Assembly: GCA_034002465.1 (NCBI GenBank)
Contig: JAVFAO010000040.1
Coordinates: 1 to 28,622, forward strand
Direction: 5' to 3'
DNA: 28,622 bases
Source of the DNA: Myxococcota bacterium
Lineage (GTDB): Bacteria > Myxococcota_A > Bradymonadia > UBA4248 > JAVFAO01
Shown: positions 985 through 17,739 of the stretch, in pieces
How positions within the stretch are numbered: position 1 is the first letter of the stretch
How the letters are laid out: every line of letters begins with the position of its first letter
Position numbers and translations under genes: made by a program
Notes under the pieces: model-generated
Database searches by the model: none
What the model saw: only the letters and a program-made list of their open reading frames with translations
What the model was told of the DNA's origin: nothing

Positions 985-2247
985 GTGCTCATTCAGTTTC
1001 GCTTCGAGAACCATCGCTCGCTTCGGGACGAACAGACGCTCTCGTTCGTGGCAAGTTCCGAGTCTGAAGAAGACGAGCCTCGTCTGCTCCACCATCCCAG
1101 CCTCGCCGAGTCACTGCTGCCGACCGTTGCCATCTACGGCGCCAACGCCTCTGGCAAGAGCAATGTCATCGACGCCTTGGCGTTCATGCGCGCGGCAGTG
1201 CTCGACTCCCATCGACTGTGGGAGCCCAAAGGTATCCGAAACGACCCATTTCGTCTGGGGCAGCGCGAAAAGGAGCCTTCGCTGTACGAACTCCAGTTCG
1301 TTTCTGCAGACCGCCGCTATCGATATGGTTTTTCGCTGGACGCGGAACGCGTTTCCAGCGAGTGGCTCGAGCGCTGGAGCGGCACCAGTTTCGAAAGCCT
1401 GTATTCGCGAGACGGTGATCGTTTCGAACTCCACGCAGACTTTTCGAACGATACTGAGCTGCTGACTCGCCTCACGCGTCCCAACAGCCTCTTCCTTTCG
1501 GCTGCAGCGCAGAACAATCATCCTGCGCTTGGCGAGCTGTTTCAGCACTTCGAGGGTATTCGGGTCATCGCGCCATCGGCCTTTGACGCGACGCACTCGC
1601 TCGCGCGAGCGACCCGCTCCGTCGAGGCACTCTTCGCTTCTCCGCGACAGCAATCACTCTTCCCTGACGAGAGAGGTCTCGTACAACAACGCGAGGCGGT
1701 GCTCGAGCTGCTTCGCGTCGCCGATCTGGGCATCCTCGACATTGGCCGGGATGAGTCACGTCGCTCTCGCTCCGCGCCCTCCCTTCTGTTCAGGCATCGA
1801 GCCAGCCCTCCCGAGCGAGAAGCGTGGCTTCCACTCGAGGGTCAATCGCGTGGCACCCTGAAGCTGCTCGAGCTCGCTTTGCCGTTGCTGCTCAGTCTCC
1901 AAAGCGGCACCTCGCTCTGGGTCGACGAGTTGGACGCCAGTCTGCATCCCGTCTTGGCTTCGCACTTGCTTTGTCTGTTCCACACGCCTGAGACCAACCC
2001 GCTCGGCGCTCAGTTGGTCTTCACCACCCACGACACCCACCTGCTCGGCACTTTGTTGGGCCAACCGCCGCTACGCCGGGATCAGGTCTGGTTCACCGAG
2101 AAGAGCGAGGATGGCGCCACGACACTCTTTCCTCTCTCGGACTTCGAGAGCTCCGAGCATCAAAACGTGGAAAGGGGCTACGTGCAGGGACGCTACGGAG
2201 CCATTCCGTTCCTGGACGAGCTCCGACTGACCAAGGGTTCTGAATGA
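985..2247 (+). CDS. AAA_21 / ABC-like ATPase of an AbiL-like or OLD-like two-gene module
   Basis: Walker A reads AIYGANASGKSNVIDAL. The Walker B/D-loop reads LWVDELDASLHP and the H-loop reads VFTTHDTHLL. The N-terminus LIQFRFENHRSL is typical for this family. GTG 985 was chosen because AGGAG lies 5 nt upstream. The 586-984 extension in the track ORF is repeat DNA. The stop overlaps the next start as ATGA. Confidence 0.85.
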   Translation: MLIQFRFENHRSLRDEQTLSFVASSESEEDEPRLLHHPSLAESLLPTVAIYGANASGKSNVIDALAFMRAAVLDSHRLWEPKGIRNDPFRLGQREKEPSLYELQFVSADRRYRYGFSLDAERVSSEWLERWSGTSFESLYSRDGDRFELHADFSNDTELLTRLTRPNSLFLSAAAQNNHPALGELFQHFEGIRVIAPSAFDATHSLARATRSVEALFASPRQQSLFPDERGLVQQREAVLELLRVADLGILDIGRDESRRSRSAPSLLFRHRASPPEREAWLPLEGQSRGTLKLLELALPLLLSLQSGTSLWVDELDASLHPVLASHLLCLFHTPETNPLGAQLVFTTHDTHLLGTLLGQPPLRRDQVWFTEKSEDGATTLFPLSDFESSEHQNVERGYVQGRYGAIPFLDELRLTKGSE

Positions 2248-2864
2248 GTGCAGCCAGAAAGCGGGATGATTCGGTTCGTCGCTCTCCGGGCAGAAAGCAG
2301 CCCAAGCGTCGAATCCTTATCGTCTGCGAGGGGCGGCTGACAGAACCGCACTACTTTCGACGGTTTCAGCACGCGACCCGGAATCCGTTGGTGCACGTCG
2401 AGGTGGCCAAGGAGACCGGAGTACCGCTGACGGTCGTTCAGATTGCTGTCCAGCATAAGGAGAAAGCCGAGCAACAGGCCCGACGCCAACACGACGATTT
2501 CCTTCGTTGGGACGAGGTCTGGGCGGTCTTCGACATTGACGAGCATCCTCATGTTTTCGAAGCCCTTCGCTTGGCGGAGCGCGAAGCGATTCACACTGCC
2601 GTCTCTGACCCGTGTTTCGAGCTCTGGGCATTGCTACATTTCGAGGATCAGCGCGCACATATCGAGAGAAAGCAGCTACGCCTCAGGCTCAAGCGCCACA
2701 TGCCCGACTACGACAAGGAGCTCGACTTCGACAGGATGCACCCCCATTACGACAACGCGGTGGCCAGGGCCACGCACCTGAACGAAGAGCTCTCCACTCG
2801 AGGCCGAAACCCTTCGACTCAGGTGTTTCTGCTTACCGAGTCCATCGCTCGCAACGGCCACTGA
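2244..2864 (+). CDS. RloB-family (Toprim-like) protein, partner of the ATPase
   Basis: The N-terminus has ILIVCEGRLTEPHYF (RloB consensus ilIvcEGekTEpnYf). A DxD-like VWAVFDIDEH motif is present. The C-terminus has SDPCFELWALLHFE (consensus sNPcFElWlLLHf). Its start overlaps the ATPase stop by 4 bp. Confidence 0.85.
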   Translation: MSAARKRDDSVRRSPGRKQPKRRILIVCEGRLTEPHYFRRFQHATRNPLVHVEVAKETGVPLTVVQIAVQHKEKAEQQARRQHDDFLRWDEVWAVFDIDEHPHVFEALRLAEREAIHTAVSDPCFELWALLHFEDQRAHIERKQLRLRLKRHMPDYDKELDFDRMHPHYDNAVARATHLNEELSTRGRNPSTQVFLLTESIARNGH

Positions 2865-3277: not shown

Positions 3278-3841
3278 ATGCGACCTCGACAAGAGCAGAT
3301 ACGGACGAGCAAGTTTTTGAGCATGGTGCTGCGCCATCGACCCGAAAGGATTGGCATCGAGCTCGATGCAGCCGGCTGGGTGAGCATCGACACCCTGCTC
3401 GCGCAGCTCGCCAAGCACCGACACCCCCTCTCGCGAGAGGAGCTCGAGGCCATCGTCAACAGCGATGAGAAGGGGCGCTACGCCATCTCTTCGGATGGAC
3501 GTCGACTTCGCGCCAACCAAGGCCATTCGGTGCCGGTCGACTTGGGCTTGCAGCCTGCGACGCCGCCAGACACGCTCTATCATGGAACCGTCGAGCGCTT
3601 CCTGCCTGCGATTCTCGAGCAGGGCCTGTTGCCCATGCAGCGCCATCACGTCCACCTCTCGGCCGAGCTCGAGACAGCGGTTCGGGTGGGGGCGCGGCGC
3701 GGGACGGCAATCGTAGTTCGCGTCGACGCCGCAGCAATGCGTCGAGACGGTCATCCCTTCTTTGTCAGTGAGAACGGCGTCTGGCTCTGCGAGGCCGTCG
3801 CGCCTGCTTATCTCTCACGCTGCTCGGCTTCGAGCGGCTAG
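3278..3841 (+). CDS. kptA: RNA 2'-phosphotransferase KptA/Tpt1 (ADP-ribosyltransferase fold)
   Basis: SKFLSMVLRHRPERIGIELDAAGWV...YAISSDGRRLRANQGHS...LYHGT...HHVHLS...ENGVWL aligns along its length with E. coli KptA. The start was trimmed to Met90 of the track ORF, because the upstream part is Pro/Ser-rich low complexity. Confidence 0.88.
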   Translation: MRPRQEQIRTSKFLSMVLRHRPERIGIELDAAGWVSIDTLLAQLAKHRHPLSREELEAIVNSDEKGRYAISSDGRRLRANQGHSVPVDLGLQPATPPDTLYHGTVERFLPAILEQGLLPMQRHHVHLSAELETAVRVGARRGTAIVVRVDAAAMRRDGHPFFVSENGVWLCEAVAPAYLSRCSASSG

Positions 3842-4169: not shown

Positions 4170-4320
4170 TTCTTGTTGATTGGGCGCTTGGCCTGTTCTC
4201 CCAAGTTGTTGCGTGCCTTCCGTGGCACGCACCCTTCGGGCTGCCTTCGCAGCGAGTCTCCGCCTCCTGGCTGCGACTTCTTGTTGATTGGGCGCTTGTC
4301 CTGATTCCACAACTTCTCTG
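4170..4320. repeat. Composite REP/MITE-like element: B repeat (4170-4212), hairpin gcgtgccttccgtggcacgc (4211-4230), A' segment (4231-4281) and a second B repeat (4278-4320)
   Basis: It has the same architecture as 590-668, plus B copies at 46-82 and 28366-28420. It is intergenic. Confidence 0.88.
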
Positions 4321-4331
4321 TTCGGAGCTTC

Positions 4332-5364: not shown

Positions 5365-5407
5365 GCTCGGCGTTCGGCTTGTTCGGCTTGGAGAGGGGAC
5401 CGAAGAG

Positions 5408-5488
5408 GACGCGGAGAGGACACAGAGAGCGCAGGACGCGGAGAGGACACAGAGAGCGCAGGACGCGGAGAGGACACAGAGAGCGCAG
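5408..5488. repeat. Perfect tandem repeat, 27-bp unit gacgcggagaggacacagagagcgcag x3
   Basis: Read directly. It lies 130-210 bp upstream of the minus-strand operon start. Confidence 0.9.
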
Positions 5489-5703: not shown

Positions 5704-5900
5704 GCTCTCTACGACGTGTTCGTTCTCCATTGTGCGGATTGGGCGTATTGGCAACATGCAGAGGCTTTGATAGAACGAGAGGCATGGCGTTGAGGGAGCC
5801 CACGAACAGACGAGGGCGACTGTTCTGTAGGCGAGCTCGGCTCCGAGATGCAGCCTACACCGTCAACGGCTCAACGGCCCCATTCGCGAGGAGAAGACTC

Positions 5901-8900
5901 ATGCTGACAGGGACGAGCTCGGACGCCGAAGCATCTGCTGCCAAGGGGCCTCTGGTCATCGTGGGAATCGGCGCCTCTGCTGGCGGCTTGGAGGCGATTC
6001 AGGCCTTCTTCCAGGCCGTTCCGGTCGACAGTGAGCTGGCCTACGTGGTCATTCAGCACCTCTCCCCGGACCACAAGAGCCTGATGGTCGAGCTGCTCAG
6101 CCGCAAGACCCTGATCCCAGTGCAGCGGGCCGAGAACGGCATGGAGGTGCTGCCCAATCACGTCTACCTCATCCCGCCCAAGATGAACCTGTCGATCTTC
6201 CACGGGAAGCTGCTCCTCGAGGAGCAGAACCGCGACGGCATCAGTCTCCCTGTCGACGTCTTCTTTCGCTCCCTCGCCGAGGATCAAGGCGAGCGCGCCG
6301 TCGCCGTGGTGCTCTCGGGTACCGGCAGCGATGGTGCACGCGGGGTGAGGGCCGTCAAGGAGTGGGGGGGCATGGTCTTGGTGCAGGACGAGCACAGCGC
6401 CAAGTTCGATGGCATGCCTCGTGCCGCAGCCTCCACGGGCGTTGCCGACTTCATCTTGCCGCCCGAAGAGATGCCCCAGCAGATCTTGGCCTGCTTGCGT
6501 CATCCCTATGCCGTGTCACAACGGCGCGGCGAGGCGCCCAGTGACGAGACCGGCATGACGCGGCTCTTCTCACTGCTCAGGGCGCGCACCAAGGTCGACT
6601 TCACCTACTACAAGCCGAGCACCATCAACCGCCGCATCGAGCGCCGCATCGCCGTCTGCCAAGCCGCCGACCTCGACGCCTATGTGCGCTTCGTCGAGCA
6701 GCATCCCAGCGAGCTCTCTTCGCTCTATCGCGAGCTGCTGATCGGGGTCACCAGCTTCTTTCGCGATCCCGAGGTGTGGACGCTGCTTCGTGAGCAGGTG
6801 CTGCCCGAGCTCTTCGCGCGCTGCGAAGACCGCTCGCTTCGCTTCTGGGTCGCTGGCGCCTCATCTGGTGAGGAGGCCTACAGCCTCGCGATTCTCTCTC
6901 GAGAGGTGATGGAGCGTATGGGTTTGGTCAAGGATCTCAAGATCTTTGCCACCGACATCGACCGCGAGGCCGTGGCCAAGGCCGGCGCCGGGGTGTATTC
7001 GGCGAGCATCGTCGCCGATCTCGACCACGCGCTGCTTTCCAAGTACTTCATCAGCCGCGGAGAGACCTTCCAGATTGCGCGCCCCATTCGCGAGATGGTG
7101 GTCTTCGCGCAGCATAACCTGCTCAAGGATCCGCCATTTACGCGCATCGAATTGGTCAGTTGTCGCAACTTGCTGATCTATCTTCAGACCAATCTGCAGC
7201 AGCACGCCCTCGACATGTTCTCCTTCTCGCTCAACCCACAGGGCATTTTGCTACTGGGCAACAGCGAGACGGTGGGAGAGCGAGAGGACCGCTTCGAGGC
7301 AGTGCACCGCAAGGCGCGCATTTACCGCTCGCTGAGCAAGAGCCGCATGCTCACCGTCGAGAGCAACACCAACGCCCTGCTGCGCGGCTCCAGTCATTCC
7401 AACGCTCTGCCTCAGGTGCGTGGGTCCCGGTCCTTGCTGCGTGAGCAGGAGCGTCTCCTCACCCGTATTCTCGATGCAATCTCCAGAACCTACTTGCCGC
7501 TGGCCGTGGTGGTGGATGAGCACCTCGAGATCGTGCACAGCGTGGGCGACAGCAGCGGGCTGATGAGTCTTCCCAGCGGTCGCGCAGTCTACGACATCTC
7601 CAAGATGGTCAGTAAGGAGCTCTCCATTCCGCTCGCCACGGGACTGCAGAAGGTGATGCGCACTGGGGAGGAAATCGTCTACACCAACGTGAGGGTCAGA
7701 GACGACGCCGATGGACGCACTCTGCGGCTGCGGCTGCGCCCGCTCCCAGGACGCAAGACCGAGCCGGTGCTGGCCGTCGTGCTCTTCGAGCAGGTCGAGC
7801 AGAGCTCCGAAAGTGGTCTACTCAGCAATCAGGGCTTCGACCTCGAGATCGAGACCTCCCAGCGCCTCCAGGATCTCGAGCAGGAGTTGCAGTTTACCCG
7901 CGAGAACCTGCAGGCCACCATCGAGGAGCTCGAGACCTCCAACGAAGAGCTGCAGGCCACCAACGAGGAGCTGCTCGCCAGCAACGAAGAGCTGCAGAGC
8001 ACCAACGAGGAGCTGCAGAGCACCAACGAAGAGCTGCACACCGTCAACGCCGAGTACCAGAACAAGATCATCGAGCTCACCGAGGCCAACAACGACGTCG
8101 AAAACCTCCTCTCGAGCTCGCGCATCGGCACCATCATCCTCGACGAAGACCTCTGCATCCGACGCTTCTCTCCGCAAGCTGCGGCAGCCTTCCATTTGGT
8201 CGACAGTGATCTCGGCAGGCCCCTCAAACACATCAGCCACACCTTGCTCGATTTCGATCCCTTGGCCCAGTGCCTTGCGGTGCAACGCAGCGGACGCCCT
8301 GTCGAGGACGACGTCAGCACCGAAGATGGCCGCTTGTTCCTCCTGCGCATCATTCCTTACCTGGTGGCGCCTCGCACCTTTTCAGGGGTGGTGCTCACGC
8401 TCATCGATATCACCCCGCTGCGCGACGTCAGCGCGCGGCTCATGCGCAGCCAGCAGACCGAGGCCGACATCGTCAAGCACATGCCCGCAGGTCTCTTTGT
8501 CTACCTCGTCGACAGTGGCGGAGAGCTGCGCCTGCATGCCGGCAACCCCTATGCCGAGCAGCTCACCGGTCGTCACCTCGAGACCATGCAGGGGATGCGC
8601 TTCCTCGACCTGTGGCCTGGACAGGGCGGTCGAGAGCTGCATCGACGACTGGTGGAGGTACACAGAGCGCAGAGCGTCTTCGAGCATCCTCATTTTGAAT
8701 ACTCGGACCAGCACTTTTCAGGGCTCTTTCGGGTCTCTGCCTTCCCTCTGCCTGCTTCGAGGGTTGGCGTCGCTTTCGAGGACGTGGGCAGCAGAGTGCG
8801 GGCCGAGGCGGAGCTGCGGCGCATCGAGTGGCTGCTCTCTGGCTCGACGCAGGAGCCGTCGGGCTTGGCGCACGCGCGCGGCCAGCTCTCAGACAGTGAG

Positions 8901-9902
8901 CCAGAGAAACGTTTCCTCCTTCCCAGCGGTCGATTGGGGTTGATTGCGCGCACCGTTGGCGCCGAACTGCTGCGCGACGTGGTTTCGGACTACCTCGATT
9001 TGATGCAGACCTCCGCCGCGGTCTACGAGCTCGACGGCGACTACGCGCTGGCGGTCTTTGCTTCGACCTGGTGTCAGCGTCTCGACCAGGCCTCTCGCGC
9101 GGCCTGTCCCTTCGAAGACGACGCCGAGGCCGCCAGTAGCGGGCTGTGGGCCTGCCACGAGTCTTGCTGGACCGATGCCTCCAAGCGAAGCATCGAAACG
9201 GGTGAGGCCGTTGACATCGAATGCGCAGGGGGGCTTCACATCTATGCCTTGCCCATCCGCGCAGCGGGCCGAATCGTCGGCTCGATCAACTTTGGCTACG
9301 GTGATCCCCCTCGCGAACGCGCCGTGCTGTCGGCCCTGGCCCAGCGTTTCGGCGTGCCTCTCGATGCCTTGGAACGAGATGCCGCCGCGTACCCCACTCG
9401 CCCCCCCTTCATCATCGAGCTCGCCAAGCGAAGATTGGCTTCGTCTGCACGCTTGTTGGGTGAGATTGTCGAGCGCAAGCTCGCGCAGGAGGCGCTGGCC
9501 GAGAGTGAGGAGCGGCACCGACAGCTCACCCGTTTGCTCTCCGATGCCGAGCGCAGCGCCCGCCTGGGGAGCTGGACCTGGGAGGTGGCGAGCGACCAGG
9601 TGACTTGGTCAGAGAACCTCTATGCCCTTTTCGGTCGAGACCCCTCCGAAGGCGCGCCCTCTTTTGCCGAGCACGCGGTTCTGTATACACCTGAGTCCAT
9701 GGAGAAGCTGCGGGTCGCGGTCGAGGTGGCGTTGAGCGAGGGTAAACCCTATGCCCTCGAGCTCACTGCCGTCCGAGGCGACGGCAGCCTGATGCGGTGT
9801 ATTGCACGGGGTCAGGTCGAGTATGCGAGGGGTTCTGAGAATGTGGCTGAGGGCGCAGCGGTCTCACGTCTCTACGGCTCGCTGCAGGAGAGCCTGCCAT
9901 GA
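5901..9902 (+). CDS. Multidomain signalling protein: CheB methylesterase, CheR methyltransferase, coiled coil, PAS_10, PAS, PocR sensory domain and PAS
   Basis: VIVGIGASAGGLEAIQAFF...QHLSPDH and VLSGTGSDGARG match CheB. FFRDPEVW...FWVAGASSGEEAYSLAIL matches CheR. The NEELQATNEELLASNEELQSTNEEL coiled coil is typical of CheBR-PAS proteins. AVYELDGDYALAVF...CPFE...HIYALPI matches PocR-like. The start was trimmed to Met58, with AGGAG 7 nt upstream. Confidence 0.88.
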   Translation: MLTGTSSDAEASAAKGPLVIVGIGASAGGLEAIQAFFQAVPVDSELAYVVIQHLSPDHKSLMVELLSRKTLIPVQRAENGMEVLPNHVYLIPPKMNLSIFHGKLLLEEQNRDGISLPVDVFFRSLAEDQGERAVAVVLSGTGSDGARGVRAVKEWGGMVLVQDEHSAKFDGMPRAAASTGVADFILPPEEMPQQILACLRHPYAVSQRRGEAPSDETGMTRLFSLLRARTKVDFTYYKPSTINRRIERRIAVCQAADLDAYVRFVEQHPSELSSLYRELLIGVTSFFRDPEVWTLLREQVLPELFARCEDRSLRFWVAGASSGEEAYSLAILSREVMERMGLVKDLKIFATDIDREAVAKAGAGVYSASIVADLDHALLSKYFISRGETFQIARPIREMVVFAQHNLLKDPPFTRIELVSCRNLLIYLQTNLQQHALDMFSFSLNPQGILLLGNSETVGEREDRFEAVHRKARIYRSLSKSRMLTVESNTNALLRGSSHSNALPQVRGSRSLLREQERLLTRILDAISRTYLPLAVVVDEHLEIVHSVGDSSGLMSLPSGRAVYDISKMVSKELSIPLATGLQKVMRTGEEIVYTNVRVRDDADGRTLRLRLRPLPGRKTEPVLAVVLFEQVEQSSESGLLSNQGFDLEIETSQRLQDLEQELQFTRENLQATIEELETSNEELQATNEELLASNEELQSTNEELQSTNEELHTVNAEYQNKIIELTEANNDVENLLSSSRIGTIILDEDLCIRRFSPQAAAAFHLVDSDLGRPLKHISHTLLDFDPLAQCLAVQRSGRPVEDDVSTEDGRLFLLRIIPYLVAPRTFSGVVLTLIDITPLRDVSARLMRSQQTEADIVKHMPAGLFVYLVDSGGELRLHAGNPYAEQLTGRHLETMQGMRFLDLWPGQGGRELHRRLVEVHRAQSVFEHPHFEYSDQHFSGLFRVSAFPLPASRVGVAFEDVGSRVRAEAELRRIEWLLSGSTQEPSGLAHARGQLSDSEPEKRFLLPSGRLGLIARTVGAELLRDVVSDYLDLMQTSAAVYELDGDYALAVFASTWCQRLDQASRAACPFEDDAEAASSGLWACHESCWTDASKRSIETGEAVDIECAGGLHIYALPIRAAGRIVGSINFGYGDPPRERAVLSALAQRFGVPLDALERDAAAYPTRPPFIIELAKRRLASSARLLGEIVERKLAQEALAESEERHRQLTRLLSDAERSARLGSWTWEVASDQVTWSENLYALFGRDPSEGAPSFAEHAVLYTPESMEKLRVAVEVALSEGKPYALELTAVRGDGSLMRCIARGQVEYARGSENVAEGAAVSRLYGSLQESLP

Positions 9903-12900
9903 GCACGAACGCCAAGAGCAACGTCGAGCAGCTCCATGCGCAGGTCGACGCCATCCTCTCGCGCCTGAGCGGGACCCTCGAGCCAGGCGAAGCCGAGGCG
10001 ATCCAGCGCTTGGCGCAGGAGCTCGCGTTGCACCAATCGGAGCTCGCGCTGCAGAACGAGGAGCTGAGCACGGTTCAGATGGGTCTCCAGGCCGCGCGCG
10101 ACCGCTTCTCGACGCTCTACCAGCAGGCGCCTGTGGGCTACGTGCTGCTCGACGCCGTGGGCATCGTTCGGCAGAGCAATCAGACCTGGCTCAAGATGCT
10201 GGGGCGAGAGCTCGAGGACGTAAGGGACCGCGCCTTCGTCGAGCACATCCTCGCCGAGGACGTGCCGCTCTTTCTCTCCCGCTTCCGCGCCTTCTTCCGC
10301 AACCCGCAGAACAAGCAGCTCGACCTGCGCATGCTCCGCTACGGGGCACCACCCTTCGTGGCCAGGCTCGAGGCTCGCCCCCAAGCCATCGACGCCGAGA
10401 GTGAGCACGAGCCGCTCAACCGCAGCGAGCTGCTGGTCGCCGTCAGCGATGTCAGCGACCTCTACGCCGTCCAGTCGGAGCTCGCACAGCGCCGCCAAGA
10501 GCTCGAGCGCCTCAGCGTCCGGGAGCAGCGACTCAACGCCATTCTGCGGGCGCTACGCAACGTCTCCAAGCTCATTCACCGCGAGCAAGACGCAGAGCGC
10601 TTGATCCAGGGTGCCTGCCAAGAGCTGACCGCCAACCTCAGCTACCATCGAGTTTGGATCGCCCTCTTCGAGCGAGACGGTGCGCGGGTTCGCGCCGTGG
10701 AGAGCTCCAGTCGGGACAGCGATTTTCGGGCCCTCCAGACCCGCATCCTGAACGGCGCCATCCCTGAGTGTCTGCGTCGAGCGCTTGCTGCCGAGCGCGC
10801 GCAGGTGGTGCGGGAGCCCGCCAAGGAGTGCCTCGATTGCCCCCTCTCCGAGCTTTATGTCGGACGCGCGGGTTTGGCTCGGGCGCTGCGCTTCGATGGC
10901 CTCCTGTATGGCGTGATTGTGGCATCGGTCCCTGCTTCCTGCACCGATGAGGAAGAGGTCCAGCTCTTCGAGGAGCTCTCTGACGAGCTCGCCCACGCGC
11001 TTCACAAGCTAGACCGAGAGGCGCAGCTCGCCGAGGCTCGCCGACGCTACCTGGAGATCTTCGAGGGCAGTCGAGACGGTTTCGTGATTGTCGACCAAGA
11101 AGGGCGCTTTCTCGATGCCAATCCGGCCTACTGTGCCATGCTGGGCTATTCCTTCGAGGAGCTGCGCGCGCTGGGGTCGTTCTACGAGGTTACGCATGAG
11201 CGCTGGCATGCCAGTGAGAGGCTGGCCAAGGCTCAGCTCGTGGTCGATGGCAGATCGTCGGTCTATGAGAAGGAGTACCTGCGCCGCGACGGTTCGGTGT
11301 TTCCCGTGGAGGTGCAGGCCTATGCCATTCGAGACCAGAGCGGGGAACTCGACTACATCTGGGCCATCGTGCGCGACATCACCGAGCGCAAAGAGGCGAA
11401 GGCGGCGCTCGAGGCCAGCGAGAAGATGTTCTACAGCGCCTTCGAGCAGGCCTCGGTAGGGCGCGTACTGACCAACATCGACGGCAGCATCGCCAGGGTC
11501 AACCGTACGTTCTGCGTGCTACTCGGCTATCCGTACGAAGAGATGGTGAAAAAAAGCTTTCTCGAGGTCACCCATCCAGATGATCGCGAATCGAGCCGAG
11601 ATGTATTCCAAAGTCTTCTCTCTGGTGAGGCGTCAACGCGGCGCCTCGAGAAGCGTTATGTGCATCGAGATGGTCGTGAAATCTGGGCCGATGTGAGCAC
11701 CAACGTCATCCGCGACGAGGAGGGGCGAGCGCAGCGATTCGTGACGGACATCCTCGACATCAGCGAACGCAAGCAAGCTGAAGACGCGCTGCGTGCCGAG
11801 CAGCGGTGGTCGTCGACGCTGCTTTCGTTGGCTCCGAACATCGTCGTGGTCTTGGGCGAGGGCTCACGCATCGAGCGCTTCAATGAGTTTGCGGAGCAAT
11901 GCACGGGCTACCGCGCCGAAGAGGTGCTTGGACAATCTTGGATTGACACCTTCATCCCCGAGGCGGAGCGCGCTGCGGTTCGCGAAGTCTGGGATACACT
12001 GCTGGAGCTCAAGGCCGTTGGCCAAGAGCAGGTCAACGCTGTCTTGTCGCGCAGCGGCGCGCAGCGCTGGATTCGATGGCGCAACCGAGTCCTCGAGAGC
12101 GACGGCCGCTTTCGGGCCATCCTCTCCATTGGTGAGGACATCACTGAGCAGCGCCTCGCCCAAAAAGCTCTGCAGGAGAGCGAGCGCCGCTTCCAGAGCT
12201 ATCTGGAGCATGCGCCCTACGGCGTCTTCGTTGCAGACGAGCGTGGGAGGTACCGGGAGGTCAATAGCCCCACTTCGCGCATCACTGGCTGGACCCAAGA
12301 GGAGTTGCTCCAGATGGGGGTGGGCCAGTTGTTGGCGCCGGAACACCAGGACCTCGCTGCGGCCCACTTTGCACAAGTGGTTCGTGAAGGGGCTGCGGTG
12401 CGTGAGATGCCATTCGTCCACCGCAGCGGCGCCCAGCGTTGGTGGTCCGTGTCGGCGGTGAAGCTCAATGAGCAGCGCTTCCTCGGCTTCGTTCAGGACA
12501 TCACCGAACGCAAGCAGGCCGAGCAGGAGCTGGCTGCTGCGTTTCAGCAGTTGGGCGCAGCCAACCAGCAGCTTCGCGCTTCGAACCAGCAACTGTCTGC
12601 CGCTGAGCTACAGCTACGGCAAATCAACGTGCAGCTACGGGACAGCGAAGAGCGCTTCCGAACCATCTATCACAACGTCAGCGTGGGTATCGCCAAGCTC
12701 TCGTCAGAGCTGCGTATCGAGCAGGCCAACCCTGCGCTGTGTGCGATCCTGGGCTACTTCGAGGATGAGCTGCGGGGTCGCCTCATCGACGAGCTCTGCA
12801 CGGCTGACCAGGAGGACTTCCAGCGCCTTCGGACGGCTAGCGTGGAGCATCTGCGCTCCGAGTGGCGCTTCGAACGACGCGACGCAGAGCGACTACCATG

Positions 12901-15103
12901 TCTGGTCGACCTCTGTCGCGTCCGCGATGAAGCCACCCAGTCGCAGGTCTATCTGCTCAGCCTGATTGACATCAGCGTGCGGCGGCGGGCCGAGGAGTCG
13001 CTGCGCGAGAGCGTCACCGCACTCTCTCGCAAGACCAGAGAGCTCGAGTATCTGCTCGACGGCGCGCGCGCGGTGCTCGAAGGCGGCGATTTCGAGCAGG
13101 TGTCGCGGCGGGTGTTCGATCATGTCCGATTGCTCACAGGGGCGCAGTCGGGCTACGTCGCGTTGCTCGATGAGCACCGCGAGGAGAACAATGTGGTGTT
13201 CCTGGAAGCAGCGGGAGCCGAGTGTTGCGTCGATCCGAGCTTGCCCATGCCGGTACGTGGCTTGCGCGAGCTGGCCTACACCAGCGGAGAGGTCGTCTGG
13301 GACAACGATTTCGCAGCGTCGAAGTGGGCAGCAGGCCTGCCCGAAGGCCACACCAAACTCCACAACGTGATGTTCGCCCCCCTCATCATCGAAGCCCATG
13401 TCGTTGGCCTCCTGGGACTGGCCAACAAGCCGACACCCTTCACTGAGGAAGATCGCGCCATCGCCAAGGCCATGGGACAGATCGCGTCCCTGGCGCTGCA
13501 GCGCAGCCGCAGCGAGCAGAGCCTTCTCTCGGAGCGAGACAATCTGCAGCGGGTACTGGAAACCGTGCCCGTGGCCATTCTGGTGCTCGACGAGCAGGGT
13601 GAGGTCATCCGCATCAACCCCACAGCCTCTCAGCTCTTTGGCGCATCCGCAGAGGAGCTGCATGGAAAGCGCTGCGGTGACGTCATGGGCTGCGTCTACC
13701 ACTCCGAACACCCTGAGGGCTGCTCCTTTGCCTCGGTCTGCGCGGACTGCACGCTTCACCAGAGCGTGGAGCTCAGCCTGAGGGGCGAAGCGGTCCCAGG
13801 GCGCGAGCTGGAGATTGACATCAGCACTGAAGATGGCGTGCGCCGCCAGCGCCACCTACTCGTCAACGCTGCACCCGTGCGCTACGGTGGTGAGTCCTGC
13901 TCGATCCTCGCCATCCACGACCTGTCCGAGAGTCATGAGTTGCGGGCAAGACTTGCCCAAGCCGACAGGCTCTCCAGCATGGGGCTGCTCGCCGCAGGCG
14001 TAGCGCACGAAATCAACAACCCTCTGTCCTATGTGATGTACAACCTGCAGAGCTCCCTCGAGGACCTTCGAAGTCTCGCCAAACAGCCTCCCCTGCCCTG
14101 GCCTTCATCGGCGGGCCTACCGCTGCTCGATGTCGAGAAACGCATGGAGGAAGCCTATGAAGGCGCCCAGCGTATCCACGCCATCGCCCGCGGCCTCGGT
14201 TCCTTCTCACGCGTCGAGTGCGATGAGCCAGGCCCCATCTACGTTTCTCGGGCTGTAGACATCGCCGTCAACATGGCCCGCAACGAGCTCAAGTACCGCG
14301 CTCGCTTGCAGCTCGATCACGCCAAAACCCCTGCCGTCATGGCCAGTGAAGGACGTCTGGCCCAGGTCATCCTCAACCTGCTCATCAACGCCGCCCACGC
14401 CATCGACGAAGGTGACGCCGACAACAACCAGATTGGAGTCGTCACCCGCCATGAAGGCGATAGTGTCACCATCCGTATCAGCGACACAGGGAGTGGAATA
14501 CGACCAGAGGACCTCGCTCGCATCTTCGAGCCCTTCTTCAGCACCAAGGTCAGTGGTAAAGGCTCAGGACTCGGGCTCGCCATCTCGAAGGGCATCATCG
14601 AATCCTATGGCGGCTCCATCGCGGTCGCGAGCGAGCTTGGGAAAGGGACCCAGTTCTGTATTCGATTGCCCATGATTACGGAGCTTCCCGAGAAGCCCAA
14701 GGAGACGAGCTCTGAGGTGCAACACGACATCCCGACCGGTCGGGTGCTTATCATCGACGATGAGGAGCCCCTCCGAAACGCCATGCGCCGTATGCTGCGC
14801 GGCAACACCCTGGTCCTCGCCGGGAGCGCCGAGGAGGCCATGACCATCCTCCGGGACGAGCGCGACTTCGACGTCATCCTCTGCGACATGATGATGCCAC
14901 ATATGTCCGGGATGGAGTTCCATCAGTGGCTGTGTTCGACCATACCGGAGCTCGGCCCAAGGCTCATCTTCATCACGGGTGGCAGCTTTACCCCTCGCGT
15001 TTTGGAATACCTTGGCAAGGTCGACAACATTCGGATCGAGAAGCCCTTCGATGTCACCAATTTCAAGAAGATTGTCGCGGAGCGTATTCGAAATCGAGGA
15101 TGA
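9899..15103 (+). CDS. Hybrid sensor histidine kinase: multiple PAS/GAF domains, coiled coil, HisKA, HATPase_c and a C-terminal receiver
   Basis: HisKA reads RLSSMGLLAAGVAHEINNPL. HATPase reads NLLINAAHAI...DTGSGIRPEDLARIFEPFFSTK...GSGLGLAISK. The receiver reads VLIIDDEEPLR...DVILCDMMMPHMSGMEF. The start overlaps the upstream stop as ATGA. Confidence 0.92.
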   Translation: MSTNAKSNVEQLHAQVDAILSRLSGTLEPGEAEAIQRLAQELALHQSELALQNEELSTVQMGLQAARDRFSTLYQQAPVGYVLLDAVGIVRQSNQTWLKMLGRELEDVRDRAFVEHILAEDVPLFLSRFRAFFRNPQNKQLDLRMLRYGAPPFVARLEARPQAIDAESEHEPLNRSELLVAVSDVSDLYAVQSELAQRRQELERLSVREQRLNAILRALRNVSKLIHREQDAERLIQGACQELTANLSYHRVWIALFERDGARVRAVESSSRDSDFRALQTRILNGAIPECLRRALAAERAQVVREPAKECLDCPLSELYVGRAGLARALRFDGLLYGVIVASVPASCTDEEEVQLFEELSDELAHALHKLDREAQLAEARRRYLEIFEGSRDGFVIVDQEGRFLDANPAYCAMLGYSFEELRALGSFYEVTHERWHASERLAKAQLVVDGRSSVYEKEYLRRDGSVFPVEVQAYAIRDQSGELDYIWAIVRDITERKEAKAALEASEKMFYSAFEQASVGRVLTNIDGSIARVNRTFCVLLGYPYEEMVKKSFLEVTHPDDRESSRDVFQSLLSGEASTRRLEKRYVHRDGREIWADVSTNVIRDEEGRAQRFVTDILDISERKQAEDALRAEQRWSSTLLSLAPNIVVVLGEGSRIERFNEFAEQCTGYRAEEVLGQSWIDTFIPEAERAAVREVWDTLLELKAVGQEQVNAVLSRSGAQRWIRWRNRVLESDGRFRAILSIGEDITEQRLAQKALQESERRFQSYLEHAPYGVFVADERGRYREVNSPTSRITGWTQEELLQMGVGQLLAPEHQDLAAAHFAQVVREGAAVREMPFVHRSGAQRWWSVSAVKLNEQRFLGFVQDITERKQAEQELAAAFQQLGAANQQLRASNQQLSAAELQLRQINVQLRDSEERFRTIYHNVSVGIAKLSSELRIEQANPALCAILGYFEDELRGRLIDELCTADQEDFQRLRTASVEHLRSEWRFERRDAERLPCLVDLCRVRDEATQSQVYLLSLIDISVRRRAEESLRESVTALSRKTRELEYLLDGARAVLEGGDFEQVSRRVFDHVRLLTGAQSGYVALLDEHREENNVVFLEAAGAECCVDPSLPMPVRGLRELAYTSGEVVWDNDFAASKWAAGLPEGHTKLHNVMFAPLIIEAHVVGLLGLANKPTPFTEEDRAIAKAMGQIASLALQRSRSEQSLLSERDNLQRVLETVPVAILVLDEQGEVIRINPTASQLFGASAEELHGKRCGDVMGCVYHSEHPEGCSFASVCADCTLHQSVELSLRGEAVPGRELEIDISTEDGVRRQRHLLVNAAPVRYGGESCSILAIHDLSESHELRARLAQADRLSSMGLLAAGVAHEINNPLSYVMYNLQSSLEDLRSLAKQPPLPWPSSAGLPLLDVEKRMEEAYEGAQRIHAIARGLGSFSRVECDEPGPIYVSRAVDIAVNMARNELKYRARLQLDHAKTPAVMASEGRLAQVILNLLINAAHAIDEGDADNNQIGVVTRHEGDSVTIRISDTGSGIRPEDLARIFEPFFSTKVSGKGSGLGLAISKGIIESYGGSIAVASELGKGTQFCIRLPMITELPEKPKETSSEVQHDIPTGRVLIIDDEEPLRNAMRRMLRGNTLVLAGSAEEAMTILRDERDFDVILCDMMMPHMSGMEFHQWLCSTIPELGPRLIFITGGSFTPRVLEYLGKVDNIRIEKPFDVTNFKKIVAERIRNRG

Positions 15104-16887: not shown

Positions 16888-17739
16888 ATGACACCAGAAT
16901 CCGAACGTTTTTGGCCCATCTTCCTCGAGGTCTACACGGCGCTTCCGCGCCAGGGGCCAGGCAACCGCGCCGCGGCCGAGCGCGCCTTGGAGCTGCTCGG
17001 CCTGCTCTCCCCGCTGCAGCGGGTGCTCGACCTGGGCTGCGGCGTGGGTGCACAGACGCTGTATCTGAGCGAGCTCCTCGGCATCGCTCCGACACAACAC
17101 GCATCGCCTGCGTCATCGCAGAAGCAGCAAGGCCAGACTCCTGCCCTGCCCTCAATCCTCGCCGTCGACCTGTACCTCGAAAACATCGAGCGACTGCAGG
17201 CCGCCATCGAACAGCGCGGACTGCAGTCTCGGGTGAAGGCGCAGGTCGGCGACATGAGCGCGCTCGAGCTGTCCCCCGAGAGCTTCGATCTGCTCTGGTC
17301 CGAAGGCGCCCTCTACAGCATCGGGCTCGCCCCTGCCCTTGAGACCTGCTTCGAGCTGCTTCGACCTGGCGGCGCGCTCGTCTTCACCGATGCAGTCTGG
17401 CGCAAACCCGAGCCACCTGAGGCAGTGCGCGCTTCCTTCGACTTCGACTACCCCACCATGGGCACCGTACAGGACGATCTGCGCCTCATCGAGGAGGCTG
17501 GATTCGAGCTCGTCGGCCACTTCACCCTGCCCGACGAGGCCTGGTGGGAAGACTTCTACACCCCGATGGAGGCCCGCGTTGCTGTGTTGCGCCAGAAATA
17601 CGTCGACGATCCAGAGGCCCTCGAGATCCTCGCCCAGGTCCAGGCCGAAGTCGACATGCACCGCGCGTACTCAGAATACTACGCCTACGAGTACTTCATC
17701 GCCATCAAGCCCGACGGGGCCAAGCTCAGAGTTGGATGA
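16888..17739 (+). CDS. Class I SAM-dependent methyltransferase
   Basis: Motif I reads VLDLGCGVGAQTLYL. The post-I acidic residue and LRPGGALV (motif III-like) are present. A low-complexity insertion reads GIAPTQHASPASSQKQQGQ. Confidence 0.8.
   Translation: MTPESERFWPIFLEVYTALPRQGPGNRAAAERALELLGLLSPLQRVLDLGCGVGAQTLYLSELLGIAPTQHASPASSQKQQGQTPALPSILAVDLYLENIERLQAAIEQRGLQSRVKAQVGDMSALELSPESFDLLWSEGALYSIGLAPALETCFELLRPGGALVFTDAVWRKPEPPEAVRASFDFDYPTMGTVQDDLRLIEEAGFELVGHFTLPDEAWWEDFYTPMEARVAVLRQKYVDDPEALEILAQVQAEVDMHRAYSEYYAYEYFIAIKPDGAKLRVG

Follow-up and report, generated by a model that had tools for sequence, protein, structure and literature searches.

The question raised by this locus is whether two overlapping genes of a Myxococcota bacterium form an anti-phage module and, if so, to which of the known ATPase-nuclease systems they belong. 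The window, by which we mean the whole stretch of DNA that was analysed, is a contig of 28,622 bp from a Myxococcota MAG and extends 25 kb to the right of the gene pair and 984 nt to its left. The locus was already recognisable in that NCBI names both proteins and PADLOC models identify the system, and the central claim of a first-pass annotation, namely an AAA_21 ATPase paired with an RloB-family protein in an AbiL-like module, is supported by strong matches to PF13304, PF13707 and the PADLOC models AbiLi and AbiLii. We consider it likely that the two genes constitute an intact anti-phage module of the AbiL type (RloA/RloB-like). The first gene of the pair and its motifs are placed as follows:

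974–979, + strand: Shine-Dalgarno-like AAGGAG, 5 nt before the ATPase GTG, as read from the sequence
985–2247, + strand: AbiLi/RloA-like ABC (Rad50/SMC-head-like) ATPase, 420 aa, GTG start, matched by Pfam AAA_21 and PADLOC AbiLi
1138–1161, + strand: Walker A (P-loop) GANASGKS, residues 52–59, invariant in 27 homologues
1510–1512, + strand: putative Q-loop glutamine Q176 (in AAAQNN), an invariant column in 27 homologues
1846–1857, + strand: ABC signature-like motif S288-R-G290-T291 (consensus ESAGT), with S288, G290 and T291 invariant
1915–1950, + strand: Walker B and D-loop LWVDELDASLHP (D314, E315, H321, P322), invariant columns
2023–2034, + strand: H-loop TTHD, residues 347–350 (H349, D350), invariant columns

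The reading frame of the ATPase is open from position 586, an extension that homologues do not use. We take the GTG at 985 to be the true start because an AAGGAG lies 5 nt upstream of it, because every homologue starts at the MLIQFR that corresponds to it, and because the upstream extension crosses repeat elements. The protein matches Pfam AAA_21 (E 9.1e-32), and its top match among the PADLOC models is AbiLi (E 1.2e-94, 315 bits), followed by AriA as runner-up (106 bits, E 8e-31). NCBI holds an identical 420-aa "ATP-binding protein" (P0121), the closest relative is 53% identical, and NCBIfam lacks a specific model for this protein as well as for its RloB partner. Conservation scored on 27 homologues (48–53% identity) agrees with the first-pass annotation in that the P-loop, D-loop and H-loop motifs it had named are all present and invariant, with Walker B plus D-loop read as VDELDASLHP at residues 313–322; Q176 is the candidate Q-loop glutamine by the order of motifs in ABC ATPases. 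The AF2 model (pLDDT 79, pTM 0.84) has the shape of an ABC head, and with all motifs in order and the head fold the protein qualifies as an ABC ATPase of the Rad50/SMC-head class. The ATPases of the Myxococcota/Acidobacteriota clade also carry a short variable insert.

The best Foldseek matches of this model in the PDB were Rad50 (3e-11), Septu PtuA (8eea, 8e-11), SMC heads and retron-associated PtuA, with E values of 3e-11 to 1e-9 for the Rad50, SMC and PtuA matches, while PDB sequence and profile searches with the ATPase returned no relative, just P-loop-level matches to FtsE and SMC3. That Rad50 and SMC heads lead the structural matches, together with weak SMC_N and RecF P-loop matches, might be taken to indicate a housekeeping ATPase-nuclease of DNA repair or maintenance, Rad50/Mre11- or RecF-like. 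We regard this as extremely improbable: the matches to repair families cover the P-loop only and fall far under the family cut-offs, the long coiled coil is absent, the second gene does not encode an Mre11 phosphoesterase, and the pair has a patchy distribution in non-syntenic contexts that include plasmids and a prophage.

The second gene begins within the last codons of the first, and its features are:

2233–2237, + strand: RBS-like AAGGG in the terminal part of the ATPase coding sequence and 6 nt ahead of the RloB ATG, from inspection of the bases
2244–2247, + strand: ATGA overlap, in which the RloB ATG (2244–2246) and the ATPase TGA (2245–2247) interlock
2244–2864, + strand: AbiLii/RloB-family protein, a predicted Toprim-like nuclease effector, 206 aa, ATG start
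2328–2345, + strand: acidic motif CEGrlTE (E29, E34), with E34 invariant and E29 conserved in at least 90% of 106 members
2532–2546, + strand: DxD motif D97-I-D99-E-H101 (VFDIDEH) at the end of strand 3, with D97 invariant and D99 and H101 conserved in at least 90%
2604–2639, + strand: RloB hallmark SDPCFELWALLH (S121, P123, E126, W128, H132) after strand 4, with W128 invariant and the others conserved in at least 90%

Both ORFs lie on the + strand with the ATGA overlap that had been reported for them. Given their common orientation and their overlap of 4 nt, it is most likely that the two genes are transcribed together and that their translation is coupled. Relatives share this arrangement, as an in-frame RloB start falls between −32 and +7 nt relative to the ATPase stop in all 65 of the related loci that could be evaluated.

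The RloB partner matches the Pfam model RloB over its full length (positions 1–195 of 195, E 9.9e-38) and has AbiLii as its top PADLOC match (E 5.4e-26, 90 bits), so that AbiLi and AbiLii are the best models for the two proteins in the PADLOC check which the first-pass annotation had proposed. NCBI holds a protein identical to it, a "RloB family protein" from a Myxococcota MAG (P0001). The description of this partner as short does not hold: 206 aa is a normal length for a family whose Pfam model has 195 positions, which at 50% identity comprises 11,115 cluster representatives of mostly ~200–220 aa, and whose lactococcal member AbiLii is given as 206 aa (PMC13064643). Nor are the two sequences more than moderately divergent, as the nearest relatives are 63% identical for RloB and 53% for the ATPase. 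The hallmarks recorded for the RloB protein, ILIVCEG (which carries E29), VFDIDEH and SDPCFELWALLHF, are present and conserved. Residue conservation was assessed over 106 diverse representatives with a mean column identity of 31%, and all 106 match AbiLii. Members of the clade also carry an Arg-rich N-terminal tail of ~23 residues which lies outside the Pfam model.

Every nucleotide-binding motif is intact in the ATPase, as are the acidic residues E29, E34, D97, D99 and E126 in RloB. These observations bear on whether the pair might be an inactive relic whose function has been lost, a reading to which we attach a very low probability. Several related loci do look degraded, with the ATPase fragmented or truncated in four of them (L034, L042, L065, L079), and a scan upstream of the pair found no sigma-70-like promoter; however, both ORFs of the window are full length with all conserved motifs intact, an RBS precedes each gene, and a consensus promoter scan is uninformative for Myxococcota.

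Whether the RloB partner is a Toprim-like nuclease, and the module thereby split-OLD-like as had also been suggested, was approached through its predicted structure. The AF2 model (pLDDT 87) has an alpha/beta core of four strands and, after it, a helical C-terminal half, with strand 1 at residues 24–28, strand 3 at 91–97 and strand 4 at 117–122. E29 follows directly after strand 1, E34 stands at the start of helix 1, and D97xD99, the candidate catalytic pair singled out for modelling, falls at the end of strand 3, an arrangement that has the conserved Glu after strand 1 and the DxD after strand 3 of the Toprim fold. Published work describes the same catalytic layout, with RloB bearing the Toprim Glu and DxD (PMC12065111), and reports a relation between RloB and the OLD Toprim from HHpred (PMC10440598). 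Sequence comparison gave no independent confirmation. A Pfam scan of the 106 RloB members yielded no Toprim model match at E ≤ 1, there was no significant sequence or profile similarity of RloB to the OLD-like Toprim (PF20469), and hhalign of two RloB alignments with the C-terminal region of phage P2 Old returned E values of 0.2–0.3, a weak comparison given that Old entered as a single sequence. Homologues of the Old C-terminus amounted to 4 near-identical fragments, and tblastn of plasmids returned none. Both hhalign comparisons aligned the same DxD-strand region with P2 Old. In the PDB, Foldseek with the RloB model found nothing at E ≤ 0.001, and sequence and profile searches found no relative, with chance matches alone. 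The Toprim assignment of RloB thus draws its support from the topology of the model, the residue conservation and published work. The two activities are encoded by two separate ORFs rather than as the fused ATPase-Toprim polypeptide of class 1/2 OLD proteins, and the locus would be "split OLD-like" at most, as is the case for PARIS; this part of the first-pass annotation stands at the level of fold and published evidence, whereas comparisons of sequence and of profile gave no significant link to the OLD Toprim.

The distribution of the pair was followed in a scan of one genome per species, which yielded 80 loci with RloB relatives of 28–58% identity. These are spread patchily across Myxococcota, Acidobacteriota, Planctomycetota, Actinomycetota, Pseudomonadota and other phyla. 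An ATPase homologue lies directly 5' of RloB on the same strand in ~73 of the 80, the remainder being contig ends or degraded-looking loci. The flanks of 73 loci, comprising 502 ORFs, contain no family that recurs in more than six loci and no third conserved gene that accompanies the pair. The sole flank synteny that is shared belongs to four related Bryobacterales genomes, and an Archangium locus has unrelated housekeeping genes as neighbours. Homologues also occur on plasmid records (41 for RloB, 155 for the ATPase), among them 3.9-kb E. coli plasmids annotated with RloB and ATP-binding genes and carrying little else, and homologues of the pair are found in one Klebsiella prophage. Variable flanks, patchy spread and occurrence on plasmids and in a prophage identify the pair as a horizontally mobile, self-contained module, and it moves as such a cassette among unrelated contexts, plasmids and prophages. 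A housekeeping operon conserved in all relatives, which had been named as the outcome that would overturn the defence reading, is not what these flanks, plasmids and prophage reveal.

The pair might instead be a toxin-antitoxin-type addiction module, in which the RloB nuclease would be the toxin and the ATPase the antitoxin, and which would mainly stabilise itself or a mobile element rather than act against phages. In NetFlax, AAA (D29) antitoxins are neighbours of toxins of the Toprim_OLD and RloB (D44) types, and toxicity-neutralisation assays confirmed related pairs (PMC10440598), and the presence of the pair on the very small 3.9-kb plasmids fits the same explanation. This explanation largely overlaps the defence model, however, because PARIS itself is described as a TA-like abortive system (PMC13064643). 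Moreover, the founding member AbiL confers phage resistance, and the pair is chromosomal here with no mobile-element genes in view. We therefore consider addiction as the main function unlikely and prefer the reading as an anti-phage module.

Some RloB representatives weakly match the 'B' partners of the PADLOC candidates PDC-M12, HEC-01 and PDC-M07, and the 'A' ATPases of the same three candidates are weak matches of the window ATPase. These weak matches of both partners place the pair in a wider group of AAA_21 ATPases with small effectors, within which it is AbiL.

The surroundings of the pair in the window were examined for signs of a genomic island or of a functional partner. A neighbouring gene downstream is:

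3278–3841: kptA, an RNA 2'-phosphotransferase gene (NCBIfam equivalog, 262 bits)

A gap of 413 nt separates it from RloB. The first-pass annotation placed the pair in a repeat-bracketed island next to kptA, a description of which the repeats and the adjacency are real and the island is not. An 84-nt repeat occurs at 590–673 and 4203–4286 (89% identical), and a 44-nt repeat at 40, 4170, 4278 and 28373. The flanking repeats are not island borders, because the family to which they belong is dispersed and occurs at 28373 as well; the possibility that they mark the borders of a mobile element was rejected on the same intergenic dispersal, with copies at 40 and 28373. The segment between the repeats would also take in kptA and a ytxH-like gene. 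As regards kptA, the gene was near the pair in none of the 80 related loci and the pair was near kptA in none of 28 kptA loci. The adjacency is thus best seen as coincidental, these counts argue against a link, and kptA was ruled out as a functional component of the module on the same basis.

With a GC3 of 0.70 the pair stands at the lower edge of, and is counted within, the range of its neighbours (0.71–0.81), the window contains no tRNA gene, and neither an integrase nor a transposase is present among the window ORFs scanned. The window has no Rfam match, the number of terminator-like matches (two) is below the chance expectation, and the region 3' of RloB folds no better than its shuffles. 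There is no defence-island context, because the 25 kb on the right-hand side contain no further PADLOC defence gene. The same region is free of restriction-modification (R-M) genes, be it hsdR, hsdM, hsdS or others, which bears on the idea that the pair assists a type I R-M locus by modulating or backing up restriction, in the manner of Campylobacter RloA/RloB. The idea draws on the origin of the RloB family name in R-M-linked ORFs and on one plasmid ATPase homologue annotated as RloA. Against it are the lack of R-M genes in the window to the right, with 984 nt of sequence to the left, and the flanks of the 73 related loci, in which no R-M-like family recurs; we hold this explanation to be highly improbable.

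For the preferred reading as an anti-phage module, the working model that is most likely by analogy is one in which a sensor or antitoxin ATPase keeps a Toprim-like, metal-dependent nuclease in check until infection sets it free. Lactococcal AbiL provides abortive phage resistance, with action after transcription for Ceduovirus (PMC13064643), and as cited in that review phage resistance has been shown only for this distant lactococcal system (Deng et al. 1999). AbiL has been classed with the ABC ATPase + Toprim defence systems (PMC11464382), and its mechanism is presumed to be PARIS-like in a 2026 review (PMC13064643). In PARIS, binding of a trigger leads to release of AriB and cleavage of tRNA-Lys (PMC11464382, PMC13064643), and in related pairs identified by NetFlax, Toprim toxins are neutralised by AAA antitoxins (PMC10440598). 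By analogy with PARIS AriA/AriB and the AAA-antitoxin/Toprim-toxin pairs of NetFlax, an ATPase oligomer would bind the nuclease and hold it inactive. The ATPase may then sense a phage cue in an ATP-dependent manner, upon which the nuclease would be freed or activated during infection. The freed RloB nuclease would cut host and/or phage nucleic acid, possibly tRNA or DNA, and this cutting would halt phage multiplication at a cost to the infected cell.

The conserved Arg-rich RloB tail and the variable insert of the ATPase are features through which trigger, assembly or substrate in the Myxococcota/Acidobacteriota clade could differ from those of PARIS, and in this genome only, RNA ends left by the nuclease might conceivably be a substrate for the kptA product. 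We give little credence to this variant, and the PARIS-like working model remains our favoured view of the module.

The locus represents one more intact AbiL/RloAB-type cassette in a family of ~11,000 cluster representatives. Its value is modest and lies in being an example from the Myxococcota, a phylum in which few defence systems have been characterised. More generally, our PDB searches found no solved structure for relatives of either protein of the ABC ATPase + RloB class, and biochemistry on any member of the clade would help to decide if all ATPase + Toprim pairs act like PARIS.

Among known systems, the closest counterpart is AbiL of Lactococcus lactis (AbiLi + AbiLii), which likewise has an ABC ATPase first and a ~206-aa RloB-family protein second. 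Of the PADLOC/DefenseFinder definition of AbiL, the locus has the ATPase, the RloB partner and their adjacent co-directional order with the ATPase first. Unlike the lactococcal pair, which is plasmid-borne, the window pair belongs to a distant Myxococcota/Acidobacteriota-type clade and sits on a high-GC chromosome, its RloB carries the ~23-residue Arg-rich N-terminal tail, and its anti-phage role is predicted. The RloA/RloB pair of Campylobacter jejuni is similar in that an AAA_21/AAA_15 ATPase adjoins a PF13707 RloB protein, and differs in that the window pair is without linked hsd genes.

PARIS resembles the locus in that an ABC ATPase of the AAA_21 type is paired with a small effector of the Toprim type that has its own gene, and the match of the window ATPase to AriA at E 8e-31 indicates membership of the same superfamily but not of the same family. 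The AbiLi score of the ATPase is three times its AriA score, and the partner is an RloB protein with no AriB or DUF4435 match. PARIS nevertheless serves as the mechanistic template, with a sensor ATPase that restrains a nuclease and a freed nuclease that cleaves tRNA. In contrast to the OLD-family nucleases (P2 Old, class 2 OLD, Gabija GajA), the activities of the window pair are distributed over two polypeptides, and neither sequence nor profile comparison links its RloB significantly to the OLD Toprim. Septu PtuA/PtuB and retron-associated PtuAB share the ATPase fold (PtuA 8eea, E 8e-11) and the two-gene logic of an ATPase with a nuclease; their effector is an HNH nuclease, whereas that of the window pair is RloB.

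The window, which carries the AbiL-like pair of an ATPase gene and an RloB gene, contains a repeat family of two units dispersed in its intergenic sequence, all copies of which share one orientation and none of which would be expected there by chance:

40-83, 4170-4213, 4278-4321 and 28373-28416: 44-nt repeat unit (TTCTTGTYGATTGGGCGCTTGGCCYGTTC...)
590-673 and 4203-4286: 84-nt repeat unit, adjoining the 44-nt unit and containing a GC-rich hairpin

This family may be REP/MITE-like or regulatory. The upstream non-coding kilobase, at the start of the window, is also dense with repeats of other kinds:

1-51 and 83-133: two copies of a 51-nt repeat unit with the hairpin GGGCGGAC...GTCCGCCC
173-334: 85-nt tandem repeat built from 42-nt sub-units

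Within the pair itself, RloB begins with a segment that lies outside the Pfam RloB model:

2244-2312: Arg-rich N-terminal tail of RloB (residues 1-23)

The tail is predicted to be disordered (pLDDT < 50), and R13, P20 and R23 are kept among the 38 closest relatives; its role could be in docking or in binding nucleic acid. Among the 80 related-genome loci encoding RloB relatives, the ATPase gene beside the RloB gene appears interrupted, truncated or frameshifted in four (L034, L042, L065 and L079), which suggests that some copies of the pair are decaying. No association of the pair with kptA was found across these 80 loci and 28 related kptA loci.

3278-3841, plus strand: kptA/Tpt1 RNA 2'-phosphotransferase (NCBIfam equivalog, 262 bits)

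Other features of the window include:

5406-5488: perfect tandem repeat of a 27-nt unit (AGGACGCGGAGAGGACACAGAGAGCGCAG) in three copies, on the upstream side of the cheB/cheR fusion gene
5730-9902, plus strand: CheB methylesterase-CheR methyltransferase fusion, 1390 aa, with PAS and PocR sensor domains
7861-8070: run of 21-nt repeats (7-aa, NEELQxT) inside the fusion gene
9899-15103: hybrid histidine kinase with multiple PAS/GAF domains, 1734 aa, next after the fusion gene
16888-17739, plus strand: SAM-dependent methyltransferase, partial match to the PADLOC mad2 model (E 3e-18)

The NEELQxT run is probably a coiled-coil linker. The mad2 match probably reflects generic methyltransferase similarity, since the other components of a MADS system are missing.

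The bacterial MAG also carries a gene resembling that for the major vault protein (MVP), separated from a TPR/peptidase C39 gene by an intergenic array that could provide binding sites:

24800-24995: tandem repeat of a 22-nt unit (CGCGTGCAAACTAATGGTCGGC, with variant copies), about 7-8 copies in all
25129-28284, minus strand: vault-protein-like gene, 1051 aa

Its product has major vault protein domains, matching the MVP shoulder domain (E 1.5e-16) and Vault_3 (E 2e-6).
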